A DNA stretch of 57,425 bases, filler included, from Circinaria calcarea (taxonomy: Eukaryota), in assembly GCA_051942165.1 (NCBI GenBank). It is 2 parts of 2 records of this genome, joined end to end, with 100 filler letters (N's around TTAATTAATTAA, not from the genome) between each part and the next. Parts side by side here need not be neighbours in the genome. Positions count along the whole stretch, not along the records: positions 1 to 28,688 come from JAVECS010000052.1; 1 more part is not named here. One strand, 5' to 3'. Below, one piece after another: positions 7,228 through 28,788 of the stretch; position 1 is the stretch's first letter; the number at the start of each line of letters is the position of its first letter. Under the pieces are notes generated by a model. The model did not search any database, was not told the DNA's origin, and was given only the letters and a program-made list of their open reading frames with translations. The position numbers were made by a program, and so were the translations under genes.

Positions 7228-9143
7228 ATGCCTCTCACAAACGGTGATGTGTGCTTAGGTTCAGCACATTTGCTCTCTGCGACCGAACTCCTAAAATTCA
7301 CCACTGCCCTTGACATTCTAGAGAAAGAGTATCCCCAGCGAGATGGATTGGATGCAAAGACGCTTCTAGACTCCCACACCAACGGCGGACTCACTTACAA
7401 CGATTTCCTTATTCTCCCAGGCTACATTGGTACATGCAGGTCGAACATCCAGATGATTGGCGGCTGACAGACCGTGCAGGCTTCTCTGCTTCTGATGTTA
7501 TCCTCGATACCCCTGTAACCAAGCGAATCTCCCTAAAGACTCCGCTTGTTTCCTCTCCAATGGACACCGTGACAGAACATTCCATGGCTATCCATATGGC
7601 TCTTCTTGGCGGCCTGGGTGTCATCCACCATAACTGTTCCGCCGAGGACCAGGCGGAGATGGTTAGAAAGGTAAAAAGGTTCGAGAACGGATTCATCCTT
7701 GACCCTGTCGTCCTCTCCCCTAAGACCACGGTAGGCGAAGCGAAACTACTCAAAGAGAAATGGGGATTCGGAGGATTCCCAGTCACAGGTTAGTTGTCTT
7801 GTTCCTACAATTGCGATATCCCCATCTTCTCGAACTTATTATGATGCATAAAACAACACAAATAACTTTCGTTCATCCACAACGATTCCATCGTATTGCG
7901 GAAATCCGATAATATAACTGAGATGCGTCTATGAAGAGACGATATGCTGTGCAGTAGGTGTGATGGGCTAGAATCGTGTGCTGATGGTTTACGTGTCGTA
8001 GAGAACGGCACCTTACGATCTAAGCTTGTCGGAATTATTACCACAAGGGACATTCAGTTTCACCCAAACCTAGAAGACCCCGTCACGTCGGTAATGTCTA
8101 CAGATCTTGTCACTGCCCCATCTGGAACCACCTTGACCGAGGCGAACGCAGTCCTTAGCAAGTCTAAAAAAGGCAAGCTGCCTATCGTTGATAGCAACGG
8201 TCATCTTGTTTCCTTACTGTCACGGTCCGATCTGATGAAAAACCTGCACTACCCGCTGGCATCAAAGCTACCTCATTCTAAGCAGCTAATCTGTGCTGCC
8301 GCAATCGGTACGCGACCTGACGACAAGGTACGCCTCCAGAGTCTAGTCGATGCAGGCTTGGATATTGTTGTTCTTGACAGTAGTCAAGGCAACAGCATCT
8401 TCCAGATCGAGATGGTCAAATTTATCAAGGAGAAATACCCAGAGCTAGATGTTATTGGGGGCAATGTAGTCACTAGGGAGCAAGCAGCTTCTCTGATCGC
8501 AGCTGGAGTTGATGGTCTTCGCATTGGAATGGGAAGCGGAAGTGCTTGCATCACCCAGGAAGTCATGGCCGTAGGCAGACCTCAAGCAGCTTCAGTATTC
8601 AATGTGTCAACCTTTGCAGCTCGTTTTGGTGTGCCGTGCATCGCGGACGGAGGTATACAAAACGTCGGCCACGTTGTCAAGGGACTGGCACTAGGCGCTT
8701 CCACTGTCATGATGGGAGGATTACTTGCGGGTACTACCGAATCTCCAGGGAACTACTTTGTCAGTCGGGAAGGACAATTGGTGAAAGCGTATCGAGGTAT
8801 GGGCAGCATCGATGCCATGGAGGATAAGAAAGCCGGATCCGGTGGCAAGAACGCGAAAAAGAACAATGCCGGTACAGCAAGGTACTTTTCCGAGGGAGAC
8901 CGCCTACTGGTAGCCCAAGGCGTGTCGGGCTCCGTCCTTGATCGGGGATCCGTCACCAAATTCGTCCCATACCTTATAGCCGGCCTTCAACATTCGCTAC
9001 AAGACATTGGTACGAAGAGCTTACCAGAGCTTCGGCAAGGCGTGCTCGACGGCAAGGTTCGATTCGAGCTGAGGACGGTCAGTGCACAAGCTGAAGGTAA
9101 CGTGCACGGATTGCACAGCTTCGATAAGAAGCTGTATTCATGA
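7228..9143 (+). CDS. imdA: Inosine-5'-monophosphate dehydrogenase (IMPDH), 3 exons
   Basis: Motifs [27 protein letters not shown] pair, catalytic [18 protein letters not shown] and KAYRGMGS. Introns at about 7430-7479 and at 7789-8001. Confidence 0.97.
7837..7924 (+). ncRNA. snR54: Intronic box C/D snoRNA, snR54/SNORD59-like (18S rRNA 2'-O-methylation guide)
   Basis: Lies inside the 213-nt IMPDH intron. C-box-like ATGATGC at 7841, guide TAACTTTCGTTCA at 7863-7875 complementary to the conserved 18S sequence (T)GAACGAAAGTTA, D box CTGA at 7918-7921, and flanking complementary segments (ATATC..TCTTC / GAAGA..GATAT). Yeast snR54 is hosted in an intron of the IMPDH gene IMD4. Confidence 0.85.
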
Positions 9144-9531
9144 ATGGCCTCAAAGGCAAATGCTTTATGGCACCGGGTGGCGTTGGAGCGAAAGGGGAAA
9201 ACATGAGGGGTGAGAGGATAAGATTTGCATTTTACAGAATAGATACCCTAAACAGACACGCAAGCGGTAACTTAACTGTCGAGAATAGGGGTTCTACACT
9301 ACGTGGGAACGAACTGACGGAGCGGGTTAACTAATTACCGTGACGTACACATAGCAGAGTTTTCTGCTATGCAATTCTGCAGTCAAGTCAATACCATTAG
9401 ACTGGTAGTTACCATAGCAATCCAAGTCTGGTTGAAACTAATAGCATGACCCCGGAGGACTTTCTCTTGCGAGAACTGTATCCCGTCATAATTCTTTGAG
9501 AGCTTGAAGGTAAATACGAGCTAAGACTACT

Positions 9532-10533
9532 TTACGCTACATCCTTGCTGTTCCCGTCCCTAACCAGCGTTCCCGGGTCGTATTTGCGTGGCTTCATATA
9601 CCTTTGCAGTGCCTCCCAATCAACGCACTCGCGTAGTACGTTCGGCCGCGGCGTGAGGGCATGGCCAACGATCTGCGACCAATAATATGGCAAAATTGTA
9701 AGATCCGGATTGCACATGACAGATGTACGCAGTGACTCGAGGCAGTGTACTATGCAAGGTGAGCCTCTACTTGCCAATTTTTACACCTGAAACAGAAGAA
9801 TGGCACCATACCGTTGTGCTCCTTGTTACTTTCACGCTGCTCCGCGGTGATGTTCGGGTAATAATAGCTTTCGTGTATCGTTTGGCGAAGTCGTCGCTGA
9901 AGAATTGTCAAACAGGCACGATGAAGGATTGCTGGAGAACTTACGAGACAATGAAGGTTGTGATCGAACCCAGTGATTGTGGCAAAGTCACCATTAGGCA
10001 ACGAGACGCTTTCAGTAATATCCAGGCGCGCAGCTTCGTCGGCGAAGACACGAAGACCGTGGGCTATAAGGATATTAAGCCAGAGTAATCTTCTCACTCT
10101 TGTCTGTTAATATCGAGCACTCACGGTGAAGCAGATCGTTCCAAGCCTTGTCAGACTCGCGATTAGGCTCTCCCATAAATTCCTGATTGTCCCAGTAACC
10201 CCTTGGAGGCGTGTCGATCTCGTAATGGATTCCAGGAGATAAGGGTGCTGTGAAGGCTGTGTTAGGTTTGTGATATCGTAGGCAACCTTCTTCCCACGTA
10301 CAGAATAATCTTTGTGGGCAAAGACTGCCAGGTTTGGTGTTCGGTAAGACTGAGGACCAGTTGAAGACAAGGAGTGCCAATATGAATACCGTGCTGTGGG
10401 TCAAGGTACTCACAATCCCGCGTCGAATTCGACTGCGGGAGGAGAAAGCAGAGCGTTGACCACATTTCGCACATTCGTATGAATCACAGTGATCTTGCTC
10501 AAGCAGAAGTAATTGCTTCTCAGTCTCGTCCAT
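9532..10533 (-). CDS. DUF3328 / UstYa-like (mycotoxin biosynthesis) oxidase with N-terminal TM anchor, multi-exon
   Basis: N-terminal hydrophobic segment (TVFILALLVFNW), FMGEPNRESDKAWNDLL, and twin HxxHC motifs recovered after splicing (FDHNLHCL|RRLRQ and EHNVHCLESLRTSVMCNPDLT), ending in RECVDWEAL. These are hallmarks of DUF3328. Confidence 0.9.
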
Positions 10534-11168
10534 TGTATATGTCTTCTGTAGGTAAAGATCATGGGCTGGGGAGAATGACAAAGGTTTCCAACGTTACGAA
10601 GAAGAACGAGCAATAAGAACCCAGGGCGGGGGATGGTTGTTCACCAGCCTATTAAAGCTACCCAGAATCGATTTTGAACAACAGACTGGTATCGAGAAAG
10701 GGATAGGATAGATGTTACTAGCGCAAACTCAGGCTTCGGAACTGCTATGCCGGACGGGCTGGTCACTATAAATGCAGGATGCCTTACCTTGCGAGAAGCT
10801 GCATCTTCCAGATCATCCGCTCCCGCAAGACGATGGCACAGCTGTCCGACTGCTGCTGATCGTCTGTTGCCTGTTCTAGGCTCATGCCGTCGTGCAGTCA
10901 AGGGATTAGCTAAGATCAACGCACATGCAGCTGGAACCCTAATCCAACCAGTTGCTTGGAGGAGTTCTCGGGCGTTGTACAAACAGAGTATGAAGGACAT
11001 TTCATCTAAGTAATAACTGAAAGGGTTAGAAAGCCGGCTAAATCGCGCAATCCGAGCACAGATCGGCATATGAGTATTAAGCGAAAGAGAATTATATAAA
11101 GGAAGCTTGCAAATCACCTCAAAGGCTATCGACATCCCCAAACCAATTCCAAAGTCTGCCACCTTGAG

Positions 11169-11175
11169 TATAAAA
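11169..11175 (+). promoter_or_regulatory. TATA box of the small secreted peptide gene
   Basis: TATAAAA about 60 nt upstream of ATG 11232, followed by a CA-rich leader. Confidence 0.55.
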
Positions 11176-11231
11176 CTTCCATACAACATCAACAATAACT
11201 TTACACGGCCAAAAGTTGGTTCCACTTTAGA

Positions 11232-11481
11232 ATGCGTTTCCAGCTTCTCCTCCTTACTGCTGCTTACGCCTTTGTTGTTCTTGCACTACCTATCGTCGAT
11301 AGTAAGTGATGCTATATTCAAGGCTTCTTAACTCTTTGCGCTGACTGAGCAAGCGGATTTAAAAGAAACATTGCCGGACATCGAGACCGCGTTACTGCTC
11401 ACTAAGCGGAATGAAGCCGGTGTAAAAAAACCGTCAGCCGAGTTAGAATCACCCCCTTTGATGGAGATTGCTCTCAATTGA
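11232..11481 (+). CDS. Small secreted peptide (65 aa, 2 exons) with signal peptide and Kex2-type KR site; candidate RiPP precursor
   Basis: Exon 1 is 11232-11301, the intron is 11302-11353 (GTAAGT...GCTGAC...AAG, 52 nt), and exon 2 is 11354-11481, followed by a second in-frame TGA. The product is MRFQLLLLTAAYAFVVLA|LPIVDTDLKETLPDIETALLLTKR|NEAGVKKPSAELESPPLMEIALN. It is absent from the ORF track because it is spliced. Confidence 0.8.
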
Positions 11482-11586
11482 TGAAGGGTGGACAGCGGCG
11501 CGGACAGACAAAGCATGCATGGGCAATAGTTTGGATCGGCAAGAGTTTGAACTCCATAGTTTCTAGACGTGTTGAAATTAAAGCTT

Positions 11587-11810
11587 TCACCTTTCTGCCA
11601 ATCCTGCAATGTATTCTCAATTTCTCAGACCGTCGATACGTCTCATCAATGATGAACCAACCCTGGTAGGTATCTGTAATAACTCATGCAGTTCATCAAA
11701 GAGTCGCATCAGCAAGCTTTCTCTCCTCCGTTGGCCCTTATGCGGCCTGTTCGCCGGACTTTTGTTGCCCGGGTTGGTACTCGCGATACCAGCCGCATGC
11801 CGATGCCTTC
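11587..11810 (-). pseudogene. Possible decayed bHLH-like coding remnant
   Basis: The minus frame reads RPHKGQRRRESLLMRLFDELHELLQIPTRVGSSLMRRIDGLRN*EYIAGLAER*, resembling the bHLH basic/helix1 (RRR...FDEL..LL) and helix2 (EYI..L) pattern, with an internal stop. Confidence 0.25.
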
Positions 11811-12661
11811 TGTAATACCTACCTTTTTGAGCTGTAGCTAAGAACTTCCGGATCCTTCAGAGTCATCGTCCTCCACACCCGTAGCAGGATCTGCGCGTAA
11901 GTTGATTGTATTGGTTGTAACTAAATATAGGGCGCACGGCATGAAAGAGGGGAAAGGAGCACCAGAGATAACAGCAGCTGAAGAGAAAAGTGGTCCACCG
12001 AGTGGTCCCGGAGAACTGGAAGATCCATTTCATTGTGTCCCCCGAGTCCCGTCAGCCGCGTGCCGCATACCTCGTTCCCTCCTCAGATTAGTTGTGAGAT
12101 CCGACGGCGGCAACGAGCAACGTGGGGGTCCTGCTGCGGTAATTAATAGTGGATATGGAGATTCTCGGACCCACAATCAACCTTGCTTTCCCGCCAGCTT
12201 GGTTGAGAGCCCCGCTTAAAATCCAGACTGTGGCATCCAACACGTCTAAATGATACTGCTATGATATCGCAAAGGATCGAGCATCGATCGGATATTTCGT
12301 GGCAAGCAAAATTAACGAGAACTCCCCAAAGGCGTGTGCCACAAAATATCCCGATCAGCCCGCCCGGCGGGGTCCTTATCCCTTTGTTGTGTACGGAGTA
12401 CACCATCTCTTTTTCTTGCTCAAGGCAGATCCGAACCGTACCACCCTATTTCCACAAATCGGAGGGCGCGACCAAGACCTTCCAATTGTGGTACTGGGCT
12501 GGTACGGCTTTTTCGATCTGGATGTAAGGGTTAGTACGTTGCATCGGGCTGATCCAACTGGAATATATATCTCCTGTCCGTCACAAAGCTACCATCATCC
12601 GCTGGGCGCCGCTTGTTTGGGTACTGTATGTTTTGCTTCCATCCCGGAGAACTATATCATT

Positions 12662-14102
12662 ATGGCTACCATTCGCATCTCAGCGCCGTACATGATTGCA
12701 GCAGGCGCCGTTTGGCCTCCTGTATGTGCTGGGCTGGTTAGCCTGCGGTTTATGACACGAAAAGCACAGCGAGCACAGCTAGGGATTGACGATTGGCTTG
12801 TACTGCCGGCATTGGTGAGAAGTATCGGAATAATGGATTTCTGGAATAGAAACTTATTCTTGCACTAGGTTTTACTCTTCGCCATGTGTGGAGCGGCAAT
12901 TGCGGGTAGGGTTTCATTATGCGAATAAAATCGATAAACGCTGACCGTTGCTAAGGTACCGCACTCAAAGCGGTGGCCTATCCAACACCTAGATTTGATC
13001 CGGCGCAAGCACTCACTGAAACCAGTTATCAACAAACGGTGACACGAATTGTAATCTCAATTTCCACATCCGCAAACAGCAGAATAAATAAAAACTTACA
13101 TTTAATTAGGTCTACTGGGTGATTGAGGTGATGCAGGTGCTAACATTGATGTTTATTAAGCTCAGCGCCATGTTTTTTTATCGACGCATTTTCTGCACCG
13201 GCTATAATAAAGCCGTCAATATTGCTATTTGGACGGTTATTGCCATTGTGATCGTATGGGGAGTCTCTTTCTTTTTTACGCTTACCTTTGAATGTGGTAC
13301 ACATTTCGACTACTTATGGACGAATCTGGAAAACCAGGCAAAGTGCAGCGATACAGTGAAGGAGCTGATGGGCTTTGCCGTGTCCGACGTTATCACCGAC
13401 TTCATTATTATGCTGTTTCCCATCCCACTTATCTGGCGCCTGCAGATCCGCACGTCCCAAAAGTTGGCTTTAATAGCCATATTCCTCGTCGGAGCCTTGT
13501 AGGTATCGCGTTGCTAATTCCATTGGAATAAACAACTAACAAGGTGTGGTGCTATCGCTGCTTCCCTCACTCGTATGATTATTTTCATCCAAGCCCTCTC
13601 TGCCGAATTTTCTTCTAGTACCGATCAAGACTGTAATTATCCCCCTTTTTTTACTTTTCCTTCTCTACCCTTTTTGTCTCCGCTATATCCCCTCATCCTT
13701 TCATTCTCTGTTGTAAATGTTTTATTATTAACTAACCTCCTCGATCTAGTACTCTCTACCGCTGGAATTTATTCTATGCTCATTGAAGTGGGCTTCGGTA
13801 TTTGCGCTATATGTCTGCCTTCCCTTTCTGGCGTCCTCAAGATCAAGGCCGTCCAGACCCTTATCAATGGCTTCTCCTCCGTCTTCTCTTCACGCGGCAC
13901 CGGCAGCGCCCCCTCCTCCATACTGCCCTCCGCTACTAAGCCGTACCGCCTTGGCAGCTCTTTCAACTCCGAGCGCGTCGAATTTGTGAGTGAAGGCAGG
14001 AACGCATCGGCGCATACATTTGAGATGAAGCCGGTGCAAGAATCTGGAGGCAAGGGCATTACGGTAACCAAAGAAGTCGATTTGAAAGCGGAAATAGTCT
14101 AG
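12662..14102 (+). CDS. PTH11/SAT4-like rhodopsin-domain integral membrane protein (no CFEM), multi-exon
   Basis: Motifs VSLRFMTR...LGIDDWLVLPAL, IKLSAMFFYRRIF, SDVITDFIIMLFPIPLIWRLQ...QKLALIAIFLVG and IEVGFGICAICLPSL, with several short GT-AG introns. Confidence 0.9.
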
Positions 14103-14468: not shown

Positions 14469-15770
14469 TTACTTTTTTTCATAATCCTCATAATGCCACT
14501 TACTCCGCTCTTCGGCATATTCCTTATACGTTGTCGGCTCAAATCTCATTTGGCCATCCTTCTCCACCCTTGAGGCTGGTGGTGCCACGACTGCCTCTTC
14601 ATTCACCGTGAGAAAGAAGATGACGGAGTAGCGCGGGGGCGCTGTCTCCTTGCCATTACCATCAACTGTAGGTAGAGAGTCGATCCTGCTTTTGGGGAGA
14701 ACGACGCGGTGGGTGCAGGAAGGATACAGGCCTGCAATGATAAACTCGGTAAAATATCAGCAACGGGAGGAGATTGGGTTTACGAAGTGGAAAGAAAACA
14801 GGGAGCGGGAGAGAAAGAGCAAGGAAGAGTGAGAGTACCGTTGGACAGCCTTTCCATCATGTCACCGATGTTCAGGTACACGGCATCACTCCTTGGTGTT
14901 ACCGGCATGAACGCACCTGTGTGGCGGTCCAAGAACTCGAGGCCGCCCGTGGCGTCCTGGAACGAGAGGGTGAAGGAACTGTTTTTATGCTTCAGTCCCA
15001 CTCACTTGATACCAGCAAATGAAAAAAGCTTCACCTCCAGTCTGTATGCGCGGGCAGACGATTCGCCTCCTCCATCACCCATCGATCAACCACCAGCAAC
15101 GGGTAGTGCAACAGGCGAAGCTGGCCGACGGGTCCAGAGTGCATATCAAGTGCAGCCGCGTGCTCCTGTTTTGTAACCTCCATACCTATAATCAATGCTT
15201 CGAGTACGGCGAAGCTCAGCTCACGCAGTCGTTCGAAGATCTTAGAGGACTGCTGACGGAATCCTGGCAGCGTTATTTCCGGGAGCCAGATGTTATAGTC
15301 TTTCTTGTTTGCGTCGTCGCCCACCTCATAGCTTTCCTGCCACGAGGAAAAGAATAGGGTGTTAGCAAGAATCTTCAGGCATTATGTGCGGCAGCAGCGA
15401 TACTTACTTTCCAGTCCTGCGTTTGGTGCAGCATTTCTTGGCGCTTTGCATCGCTCGCGTCGTGGTCCTCCTTCTGGAAAGCACGTTCCTTTCCAGGAGC
15501 GGAATAGCCCCGGTGAGGAATCAAGCCCGCTGGGTGCGGTGCCTTCATCTTCTCTTCCATGGGCAGGTCGAAGAGGTGCCGCGTGAGATTGAAGGCCTCC
15601 TCAAGTAGCTCGGGTGGCACATTATGGCCGGTAATGGCCAGGCAGCCGTTGACAGAACATTTCTCTGCAACCTCTTTTGCTGTCTGCCGACGCGTGGCAA
15701 TGTCGGCGTCCTTGGTAGTGAAGGAGGATAGATCGACGACAGGAATCGAAGCTGGCGAGGCGGTGGCCAT
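14469..15770 (-). CDS. 2-oxoglutarate/Fe(II)-dependent dioxygenase (IPNS/clavaminate synthase-like fold), multi-exon
   Basis: IPVVDLS and LFDLPMEEKMK...HRGYS (DIOX_N), LRLLHYP, PAHTDW (HxD), FQDATGGLE, NIGDMMERLSNG, SCTHRV (distal His) and RYSVIFF (RxS). Stop codon at 14469-14471. Confidence 0.92.
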
Positions 15771-17247
15771 TATGTTGAGAGGGACGGATTTAAATGCATG
15801 AAACGGATCAGGAAACCTAGAAAGTTGCTATCCAAGGGGGAATTTAAAAAGATACCGAAATACCACTAAGGCATAGAAAAATCAGCGGCTCCGGTACGTG
15901 GTTTAGATAATAATGCCATCCCATATAAATATGAGGCAGGCTCAGATACCTAATTTTCTGGCCTAGAGGAATAAAGACGGGGCAGATCTTACGGGAGCAT
16001 AAACTCCTGTAGGGGGTAAAGATCGTCAGTACTGGTAGCATGCATACTCGTTACGGCGTTAACGAGTCCGATTGGAATGATAAACAACCCCGGTTGTTAT
16101 AGAATTACAATAAGCAATCCCACACTCTATTCCCGTCGCTTATTTGGTCTTCCATCTATTTGACCCCCACGCTGTTTGGTTACACGGACGATCGTGTCCG
16201 CTTTATCCGATGAACTTATAAACCATGCACACCACTTAAAGCTAAAAGCCTTTGGGTATCCTTCCTACCAACCAATTTGTGGCAAGAATAAAGTATAAAA
16301 ATGCTTTTTTCTTCTATATAGACTTGCTGCTTTTTCACCCCAATTCCAGGTTCGATCTGAACGCAATAGAGCACCGTCGCTATATCGTTTTCTAAAAAAT
16401 ACCACATTCTGAAGCAATATGCGGAATATAATTATATCGAATTCCTCGTAAGGTAGCTCAAGCGTGCTGGTCCAGCCAGATTATTAAACTCAATCGCCTT
16501 ACTTCAGCCTAATATATATGCATGCGATTGTATTATCATATTGGTTATATTTCAACCTGCAGAGAACATCGCCCGAACCTCGGTTCTAGTTTGCGGCACG
16601 CTGACAACGATGATAAGACCGAAGATTTTCACTGGGCTGGATATGGATTTGTATATGCAGAGAATTATTGCCTGATGCAATATTATGGCGTTACCAATGG
16701 GGTATAACCACCGACTGGTTCTGATTAAAGTAAAGTACTTTAATCAATGTTGTACGAGGGCTAATGGGATGTCTCGTGGCACGTAAAGAAAACGAGAACT
16801 CCTTCAAGACATGTGTTACACAACATCCGATCAATTAACGCTACAACTTCGGTTATCATACAAGGCACCCGACGCTGATCCCCAGATTGCAATCCTATCA
16901 CCTACTAAATTGGGTTATTTGCTCCATGCATACGTCGGTATAGCACTTCACAAGAACGCCTATTATTAATTAGTAGGGTAAACTTTGTTGAGCATAGCAT
17001 CTTCTTTATTTTGCTGCCGGATTTAGCGAAGAACATGCCATGTCCTCTATATATCCTGGAGCTGATGCGGAATAAGGGCTGTAATGGTAGGCTTTTCATG
17101 AGTGTGTGACTGCTACTGGTACGAAACGGCCCTCGAAAAAAAGAGCCAAGCCCAATTTTGTGCGGATATAGCAACGAGATACGATAATCCGCACAAATAA
17201 GGTGTTTCAAGGCCGTTTAAGGAACGGTACCCCTCGTCCTGATTAAT

Positions 17248-19041
17248 ATGGCGAGTGGCACCGGAGCAGCAGAGCCAGCAACATCACTCGATCGCGCCGA
17301 CTCGCAAGTTGATATTCTCTCGAGCACTTTTACAGAGAAGTGTAACCAGGTCCTTCTGTCTGGCGGCGACGAGAGCGATCGGAACTTGCAAACGCAATCT
17401 TCGAGCGTTGTGAATCAGAATGCTGATACTTCAGCTCCTAATATTGGGGCCGATGTGTCGACAGGACCAGACAGTTGGGCGGGCGACCCCCAGAACCCTA
17501 AGAACTGGTCGCTAACGCGCAAATACACTATTATTGTGCTTACAGGTACAACAAACATTGTTGCGTAAGTATCTCTTCGAGTATCTTTCCATCCCTCCAC
17601 CTATCCTACCCCTTTTTTCCCTTCTTGCTCAGCCTGACTGATTCTATCCGGCAGAGCCATGTGCGTCACCGCCTTCGAACCCGCTCTGCCCTCCATAATG
17701 CAAGACTTCCACTCCACCAATGACGCTGCCGCCTCGCTCACTGTGACTATTTACGTTTTGGGCTACGTAATAGGACCTTTGATTCTTGCGCCAGTCAGCG
17801 AGCTATACGGACGTATAGCAGTGCTGGGACCAGCATATGCGTTGTTCATTGTCACACTCGTAGTCTGCGGTATTAGCACGGTGCTCAGCGAGTTTTTAAT
17901 CATCCGCTTGGTTATGGGATTTGCGGCGATTGGGTTCGGAATCGTGGGGCCGGCCATTGTGGCGGACATGATATCGGAGAAGCAGCGAGGACTGGCAATA
18001 AGCGTTCTATCCGGCGGATTAGCGCTGGTAGGTTTCGGAGGAACAGTATCCTTGATAACGAATTGCTGATGTTCCCACGCAGGGCCCCACGCTGGGACCG
18101 ATATTGGGAGGTCATATCGCGGAAAACGTGGGCTGGCGCTGGATCTTTTGGACCATGCTTATCGCTGTAAGTCTACATCACGTCCTTGTTCCGGACCGAC
18201 CACCAACAGCAGTTTCATACTCATTATTTCCCCAAAGTTTGCCTTTCTTGCCCTCGTTGCTCTACTGGTCCTGCGCGAAACTTACGAGCCGGTTCTTCTC
18301 CAGCGGCGCCAAACTACCCAGCAACCACTGCAGCTTCCCCGCAACTCTGCCCATCTCGCTCTTAAAGCTGCCTTTCAGCGCCCCTATAAGATCTTTTTCC
18401 AGTCGCCCATGGTCCCGCTTTTCGCCCTTTACACTTCTGTCCTGAACTCCTACATGAATATTCTTTTTGCCACCCTCGGTACAGTCTTCGAGTTCCAATA
18501 CTCCTTTACCCCAGGGCAATCCGGTCTCGCATATCTCGGTCTAACCGCTGGCTTCTTGGTGTCCATGTACACAATCGGCCCCTACTCCGACCGCCGCATG
18601 GCCACTCTTTCCGCTCAGCACGCTGGTGTGCGCAAACCCGAGTGGCGTTTGCCCCCGCTCGTATTGGGCTCGCTACTGCTACCAGCGGGCTTCTTGTGGT
18701 ACGGGTGGGCGATGGAAAGGCAAGCGCATTGGATCGTGCCAATCCTAGGCACCGTGGTCATTGCAGTAGGTACGATGCTGAGCTACATGCCGGTCCAGTA
18801 CTACATCGTTGACTGTTTCACGCTATATGCGGCGAGCGCCATAGGTGCGGTGAGTATCGTACGGAGTATTTGCACAGCTGTGATCCCGCTGGCAGCAAAT
18901 CCACTGTACGACAAATTAGGATACGGGTGGGGAAATACCCTCCTTGCCTTCATTGCGCTGCCGTTTGCGGGCTTCGCGGTACTGCTTTTGCGGTATGGGG
19001 AGCGGATCCGAACGCACCCACGGTGGCAGCCGAGATTGTAG
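17248..19041 (+). CDS. MFS drug:H+ antiporter (DHA1-type) efflux transporter, multi-exon
   Basis: DPQNPKNWS..RK, GPLILAPVSELYGR, GWRWIFW, LRETYEPVLL, KPEWRLPP, YIVDCFTLYAASA and LGYGWGNTLL. Confidence 0.93.
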
Positions 19042-28688: not shown

Positions 28689-28788
28689 NNNNNNNNNNNN
28701 NNNNNNNNNNNNNNNNNNNNNNNNNNNNNNNNTTAATTAATTAANNNNNNNNNNNNNNNNNNNNNNNNNNNNNNNNNNNNNNNNNNNN
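28689..28788. other. Artificial contig-joining spacer (N44-TTAATTAATTAA-N44)
   Basis: Exactly 100 nt and symmetric, with a central palindrome giving stop codons in all six frames. Confidence 0.97.

Follow-up and report, generated by a model that had tools for sequence, protein, structure and literature searches.

A 57,425-nucleotide stretch of DNA from the lichen fungus Circinaria calcarea (GenBank assembly GCA_051942165.1; called the window below) may well hold an unannotated two-exon gene for a lineage-specific small secreted propeptide at positions 11232-11481, divergent from an intact gene of the UstYa/DUF3328 family at 9532-10533. This is the reading that we favour, at about even confidence. 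Taken by itself, the claim that the open reading frame (ORF) of the peptide is a real gene, encoding a small propeptide that is secreted and can be cleaved by Kex2, is probable on codon and scan statistics. Modification of the peptide by the adjoining UstYa enzyme is possible, and the sequence of the peptide does not point to it. The first-pass annotation of this DNA had proposed a hidden spliced secreted-peptide gene standing head-to-head with the UstYa gene, a proposal that the intrinsic statistics set out below support. The gene is modelled as follows.

11095-11175, plus strand: promoter-like stretch of the candidate peptide gene, from sequence reading.
11232-11301, plus strand: predicted exon 1, which includes the ATG, residues 1-18 with their likeness to a signal peptide (11232-11285) and the beginning of the secreted portion, from sequence reading and the strict scan described below.
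11302-11353, plus strand: predicted intron of 52 nt, with GTAAGT as donor, CTGAC at 11341-11345 as branch site and CAAG as acceptor, from sequence reading.
11354-11481, plus strand: predicted exon 2, with an acidic pro-region, KR at 11404-11409, then 23 C-terminal residues encoded by 11410-11478 and a stop codon (11479-11481), from the sequence and its codon score.

Three promoter-type boxes stand upstream of the peptide ATG: TATAAA at 11095-11100, CCAAT at 11143-11147 and TATAAAA at 11169-11175. Downstream of the last lies a C/A-rich leader, and 11232 is the first ATG after the boxes; this start codon (11232-11234) carries an A at -3. TATAAA is found 16 times on the two strands of the window against 20.5 expected. 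Nine of these lie on the plus strand, three of them at 10767-11174, and two of the nine fall less than 140 nt 5′ of the peptide ATG. Without splicing the frame closes after 25 codons, with a stop that overlaps the donor. Once spliced, the ORF encodes 65 amino acids (aa) and ends with TGA at 11479-11481, followed immediately by a second TGA at 11482-11484. The TATAAAA box, the ATG at 11232, the GTAAGT/CTGAC/AAG intron and the double stop listed in the first-pass annotation were thus all present on reading the sequence. Its two-exon gene about 700 bp from the DUF3328 gene, on the opposite strand, also stood: the two start codons are 698 bp apart and divergent. The start codons of the UstYa gene and of a PTH11-like gene are 2.1 kb apart, which leaves space enough for a gene between them.

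The case for a coding region was examined with a codon log-likelihood score trained on ten long ORFs from the window (Pfam support for nine) against their five non-coding frames. The spliced coding sequence (CDS) scored 0.178 per codon and exon 2 scored 0.229, compared with a mean of 0.10 for coding chunks and of -0.09 for open stretches in non-coding frames. None of 145 non-coding open stretches of 65 codons equalled the CDS, and none of 367 stretches of 41 codons equalled exon 2. In 3 Mb of sequence simulated by a second-order Markov model built on the window's intergenic pieces, 4 of 13,461 open stretches matched the score of the exon-2 frame, and among 174 real intergenic open stretches this frame ranked third. 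Local shuffles that remained open reached the score of exon 2 in 3 of 5,591 cases and that of the CDS in 0 of 8,531. The choice of synonymous codons alone gave p=0.024 when compared with back-translation at background codon shares.

A second line of evidence comes from a strict scan for spliced genes of this build. To pass, a model had to open with a signal-peptide-like sequence, have a GTRAGT donor and a CTRAY branch site close to an acceptor that is not GAG, and yield 50 aa or more. Over the two strands of the window, the scan returned spliced models from the ATG at 11232 only, together with two single-exon ORFs, each antisense to a known gene. The same scan of 6 Mb of Markov sequence returned 0 spliced models. 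Together, the codon-usage statistics and the strict-scan results support the model of the peptide gene. A 182-aa antisense ORF at 10644-11189, which overlaps the peptide region, was also considered and set aside; it matches no Pfam family and has a codon score of -0.03.

Several points weigh against the favoured reading. The criteria of the strict scan were drawn up with the candidate already seen, and the call of a signal peptide rests on our own hydropathy rule and the -3/-1 rule. Under loose criteria (any GTNNGN donor and any AG acceptor), 0.63 chance candidates are expected in the 4.25 kb around the peptide gene, and the real window contains 24, most of them internal Met codons of known genes, where 16.9 are expected. 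The acceptor of the peptide intron is AAG, as opposed to YAG in all five of the other introns examined; 9 nt is all that separates branch site and acceptor; and use of the GAG at 11349 would yield a different product of 41 aa.

These points bear first on the alternative that there is no gene at all, and that a long intergenic or promoter stretch happens by chance to combine an ORF, signals like those of an intron and a hydrophobic start. We consider this unlikely. Besides the AAG acceptor, the lack of a homologue in the protein searches and the absence of the gene from public annotation, it can appeal to the choice of site, as the first-pass annotation gave its closest scrutiny to the flank of the UstYa gene, and to the many chance candidates that pass loose criteria. 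On these loose counts, what carries the signal is the quality of the features rather than the bare presence of an ORF. It is this quality that chance has difficulty in accounting for: both the codon-usage and the synonymous-codon tests speak against it, as do the empty strict scan of 6 Mb of null sequence and the combination of paired TATA boxes, a CCAAT box and an ATG-free leader.

The intron also bears on what a transcript would encode. Two alternative acceptors lie close by, a GAG at 11347-11349 that is out of frame (41 aa) and an AAG at 11363-11365 that is in frame (61 aa). With multiple AGs within 21 nt after the branch site, and with the stop of the unspliced ORF overlapping the donor, the locus might instead give a transcript with another product, be it the unspliced 25-codon ORF, the 41-aa peptide, the 61-aa peptide or a non-coding RNA. 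This is very unlikely in our estimate. The frame reached through the GAG acceptor scores poorly by codon usage and stops early, and fungi use G at -3 less than any other acceptor context. The 61-aa variant would matter little, since its frame and C-terminus are unchanged. Within the window, intron 1 of the IMPDH gene (7432-7478), whose borders are fixed by an exact protein match, skips the AG right after its CTGAC and uses an AG 12 nt past the branch A, and so provides a precedent for bypassing the GAG at 11347-11349. A search of positions 9000-13000 with Rfam gave no family.

Homologue searches with the peptide fall on the same side as the points against the gene. None turned up in a word-index search among proteins 22-72 aa long, a full HMMER search of 1.84 billion representatives gave 0 at E<=0.001, and the ESM Atlas gave no usable match. 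Scans of contigs matched 593 pattern stretches in metagenomes and 535 in prokaryote genomes, of which 0 were confirmed in either set. The public proteome that contains the IMPDH of the window has no protein matching exon 2 of the peptide gene. This last result agrees with the first-pass statement that the gene was absent from the ORF track.

How much these blanks reveal about conservation depends on what the collection covers. The three IMPDH exons of the window correspond exactly, over all 550 residues, to a protein in the public collection that is assigned to a metagenome-assembled genome of Circinaria calcarea; the next-best IMPDH among organism-labelled matches has 94% identity, its sources being lichen fungi outside this genus, and a further entry of 349 aa has 97% identity. 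Given that the collection includes the annotated proteins of this genome and that its nearest organism-labelled IMPDH stands at 94%, the blank peptide searches tell little about conservation.

The predicted product has a simple layout. Residues 1-18 resemble a signal peptide by a heuristic of hydropathy and charge: an R at position 2 and 16 uncharged hydrophobic residues, with V at -3 and A at -1. The sole KR is at residues 41-42 (11404-11409), with 23 residues after it. The 47 residues from 19 to 65 are acidic and contain neither Cys nor any aromatic residue (F, Y, W and H all 0). In this respect the first-pass description of a signal peptide and an acidic pro-region ending in KR was accurate, the first of these by heuristic, and its remark that no Tyr or other aromatic residue follows the KR extends from the 23-residue tail to the whole of residues 19-65.

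The same annotation had noted the lack of tandem core repeats, and this too holds. Tandem Repeats Finder (TRF) detects no tandem array at the peptide, and a test for a pairwise internal repeat was not significant (p=0.31). There is, though, a degenerate motif of 8 residues, [L/P]-P-x-[I/V/M]-[D/E]-[T/I]-[D/A]-L, which occurs three times, at residues 19-26, 30-37 and 57-64 (window 11286-11361, 11371-11394 and 11452-11475). Shuffling gave p values of 0.012, 0.008 and 0.031 for a threefold motif of length 7, 8 and 9, respectively. The copies are not flanked by KR or other Kex2 sites.

If the gene is real, its expression could proceed as follows. Transcription would start a short way downstream of the two TATA boxes, 11095 and 11169, and the 52-nt intron would be spliced out at GTAAGT and CAAG. 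Residues 1-18 would direct the product into the endoplasmic reticulum (ER) and be removed after VLA. The acidic part of 47 residues would then be cleaved by Kex2 in the Golgi after the single LLTKR site, and one or two linear peptides, corresponding to residues 19-40 and 43-65, would be secreted.

The divergent neighbour of this candidate gene is a real and intact one.

9532-10533, minus strand: UstYa/DUF3328 gene, from PF11807 matches on exon pieces and a spliced model.

Its exons on the minus strand, 10533-10125, 10063-9945, 9896-9812 and 9749-9532, join into an intact reading frame with a single terminal stop and a product of 276 aa; the introns are, in order, GTGAGT..TAG, GTAAGT..CAG and GTATGG..TAG. 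Three exon pieces match PF11807 with 28.6, 28.2 and 49.7 bits (Pfam cut-off 25) and jointly cover positions 4-218 of the 220 in the profile. HxxHC motifs begin at residues 171 and 203 of the model, the second hinging on the chosen placement of intron 3, and a hydrophobic segment near the N-terminus spans about residues 39-57 (top 19-residue hydropathy 1.94, from residue 39, by heuristic). The predicted protein thus has what marks the family: a Pfam match, two HxxHC motifs and an N-terminal membrane anchor. CctR, a biochemically studied member, is described as anchored in the membrane through residues 38-59, with a domain on the lumenal side and a binuclear copper site formed by HxxHC(x)nHxxHC (passages of PMC12435403). 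The oxidase described here resembles CctR in the position of its anchor, and resembles the binuclear copper enzymes of the UstYa/DUF3328 group more widely (CctR, AprY, ApnU and UstYa/UstYb) in its PF11807 domain and HxxHC(x)nHxxHC arrangement.

A close relative was not found when proteins of 239-2000 aa were searched with exon 1: of 183 candidates, 0 reached E<=1e-5. A scan of metagenome contigs with the same exon matched 154 stretches, 0 of them confirmed, and exact look-up of two UstYa exon ORFs showed both to be absent from the protein collection. The gene may be missing or mis-modelled in public annotation, though the adjacent IMPDH protein is present there.

The arrangement raises the question of whether the two genes work together. 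One answer, that of the first-pass annotation, is that they form a non-canonical pair for a ribosomally made peptide with post-translational modification (RiPP), the secreted peptide being the substrate of the adjoining UstYa copper oxidase. The lumenal enzyme domain (ER, Golgi or vacuole) would meet the peptide before or after Kex2 cleavage and would carry out hydroxylation, desaturation, halogenation or cross-linking of aliphatic side chains (Ile, Leu, Pro, Met); the product may then be tailored by a 2-oxoglutarate (2OG) oxygenase and exported by a major facilitator superfamily (MFS) transporter, both encoded nearby. As an account of the locus we find this quite unlikely. An enzyme-substrate relation between UstYa and the peptide, on the condition that the peptide gene is real, is an attractive hypothesis that we rate as rather unlikely.

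Position is what first commends the pairing. Besides being head-to-head with 698 bp between their start codons, the two genes are the sole hidden signal-peptide gene of the strict scan and the only UstYa gene in 57 kb, and they adjoin. By our own estimate, such adjacency would arise in about 1 in 10 cases if the peptide gene were placed randomly among some 20 intergenic slots. DUF3328 gene numbers are highest right beside the precursor gene in the counts quoted from the survey of repeat proteins that Kex2 processes (KEPs; passages of PMC7329392). The enzyme itself is intact and has both HxxHC motifs and the anchor, features that matter in the account of CctR (passages of PMC12435403). The window also lacks a canonical Kex2-repeat precursor that might serve as an alternative substrate: TRF reported 26 rows over the window, none with a period above 17 nt, and a canonical precursor is absent on that basis.

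The surroundings offer further, if circumstantial, points. Three more genes accompany the UstYa gene and the candidate peptide gene.

12662-14102, plus strand: PTH11-like membrane protein gene with a Fungal rhodopsin domain (PF20684, E=1e-24, piece 13131-13499).
14469-15770, minus strand: 2OG-Fe(II) oxygenase gene (DIOX_N, PF14226, E=4e-21; 2OG-FeII_Oxy, PF03171, E=2e-8).
17248-19041, plus strand: MFS transporter gene (MFS_1, PF07690, E=4.3e-18).

With UstYa and the peptide, these make up a five-gene accessory island between the housekeeping genes IMPDH and CTNNBL, in which the 2OG oxygenase and MFS genes diverge over a 1.48-kb intergenic region. The presence of an oxygenase and a transporter in such an island is in keeping with a RiPP pair. 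As a whole, the window looks like chromosomal DNA of an ascomycete. The other genes of the window, as judged from 40 ORF pieces scanned with Pfam, are mainly housekeeping ones: IQGAP, IMPDH, CTNNBL, an SNF2 helicase, BRO1/ALIX and DnaJ, together with an HhH-GPD glycosylase, a zinc-cluster-type transcription factor, CDC73, Lon and a kinase. None of the 40 pieces encodes a non-ribosomal peptide synthetase, polyketide synthase, tyrosinase, methyltransferase or peptidase. Two runs of 44 N, at 28689-28732 and 28745-28788, adjoin the ALIX/BRO1 gene.

The island promoters share a sequence. The exact 10-mer CGAGAACTCC has three copies only in the window, each of them 337-446 nt upstream of an island gene and in sense with it; two of the three lie within a longer element with inverted arms.

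10961-10970, minus strand: CGAGAACTCC copy, 428 nt upstream of the UstYa ATG.
12316-12325, plus strand: CGAGAACTCC copy, 337 nt upstream of the PTH11-like ATG.
16793-16802, plus strand: CGAGAACTCC copy, 446 nt upstream of the MFS ATG.
12287-12357, plus strand: 71-nt element with inverted arms that holds CGAGAACTCC, upstream of the PTH11-like gene.
16764-16833, plus strand: second copy of the 71-nt element, also holding CGAGAACTCC, upstream of the MFS gene.

In a blastn alignment the two copies of the longer element are 74.6% identical along 71 nt (within-window E=5e-7), and they show an internal inverted match. The 10-mer and the 71-nt element may represent either a regulatory site that the genes have in common or a small repeat of the dispersed type. 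The occurrence of the 10-mer in the promoters of UstYa, PTH11-like and MFS hints at common regulation, and with modest weight at an island regulated as a unit. Taken to its full extent, the idea becomes that of a minimal RiPP system, with a UstYa enzyme, a single-copy precursor that is neither repetitive nor aromatic, aliphatic chemistry and a co-regulated island of five genes. This composite is distinctly unlikely.

What holds the pairing back is foremost the peptide itself. It has one KR and no Kex2-bounded cores. Its secreted part is devoid of Tyr, Trp, Phe and His, whereas Tyr is found in 65.6% of the DUF3328-linked repeat cores counted in PMC7329392 (passages on these cores). The substrate relation is based on position, and in composition the peptide is unlike all known UstYa substrates. 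In the genetic context, a tyrosinase, a methyltransferase and a peptidase were missing from the 40 scanned pieces, and fungi very commonly carry MFS and 2OG genes. Nor does a DUF3328 gene imply a repeat precursor. The KEP survey places 31.8% of 9,399 DUF3328 genes within 15 genes of a Kex2-repeat precursor, which leaves 68% not near one (passages of PMC7329392). Members of the family also work on non-ribosomal peptides, one such peptide being hydroxylated and chlorinated by them (passages of PMC12435403).

The favoured reading of an unannotated gene for a small secreted propeptide, together with the RiPP alternative, can be placed against three known kinds of system. The first, the fungal alpha-type pheromone precursors, is alike in having a signal peptide, a pro-region and a Kex2 site. 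The peptide described here differs in lacking a repeated mature peptide or a pheromone-like core, and identification as an alpha-type pheromone precursor was rejected for want of a repeated core. The KEP survey also describes its pheromone-type genes as being, all but three, without a DUF3328 neighbour (passages of PMC7329392).

The second kind comprises the lineage-specific small secreted proteins or propeptides of filamentous fungi. Like them, the predicted peptide is short, carries a signal peptide, has no detectable homologues and belongs to a class of gene that gene callers readily miss. Most described candidate effectors are Cys-rich; the present peptide, in contrast, has no Cys, is acidic and contains a dibasic processing site. 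Should the link to UstYa fail, what remains would be one more unannotated small secreted peptide of the ordinary kind, and would recall that gene callers overlook such genes.

The third comparison is with the precursors of dikaritin-type (ust-RiPS) peptides and KEPs, of which UstA, PhomA, AprA and VicA are individual dikaritin-type examples. Here the tests give a divided answer. A signal peptide (by heuristic) and adjacency to DUF3328 are present; Kex2-bounded tandem cores and the typical aromatic residue are not. The peptide has one KR, no tandem cores bounded by KR and no aromatic residue, and its C-terminal piece of 23 residues contrasts with dikaritin-type cores of 4-10 residues. The loci differ as well, since neither a tyrosinase nor a methyltransferase was found nearby among the 40 ORF pieces. 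As first defined by Ding et al. (quoted in a passage of PMC12048977), a dikaritin cluster comprises a tyrosinase, a methyltransferase, several DUF3328 genes and a transporter or peptidase; the locus here has one DUF3328 gene and one MFS gene and falls outside that definition. Later definitions mentioned in the same source require a DUF3328 gene alone.

Published work also bears on the wider question. DUF3328 proteins are required for cyclization in the ustiloxin, asperipin-2a and phomopsin pathways. In a survey of lichen RiPPs, the passages on DUF3328 clusters state that repeat precursors were not found in them, and its authors raise a single-core precursor as an option (PMC12048977). The question posed by the approximately two thirds of DUF3328 genes with no recognized precursor nearby (passages of PMC7329392) is now testable at one locus. 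If the pairing were true, it would provide a concrete case of the 'missing' precursors in lichen DUF3328 clusters, and mining by repeats or by Tyr would be overlooking a class of fungal RiPPs. With the dikaritin-type precursors and KEPs, the predicted peptide has in common its signal peptide, secretory route, KR site, small size and place beside a DUF3328 gene.

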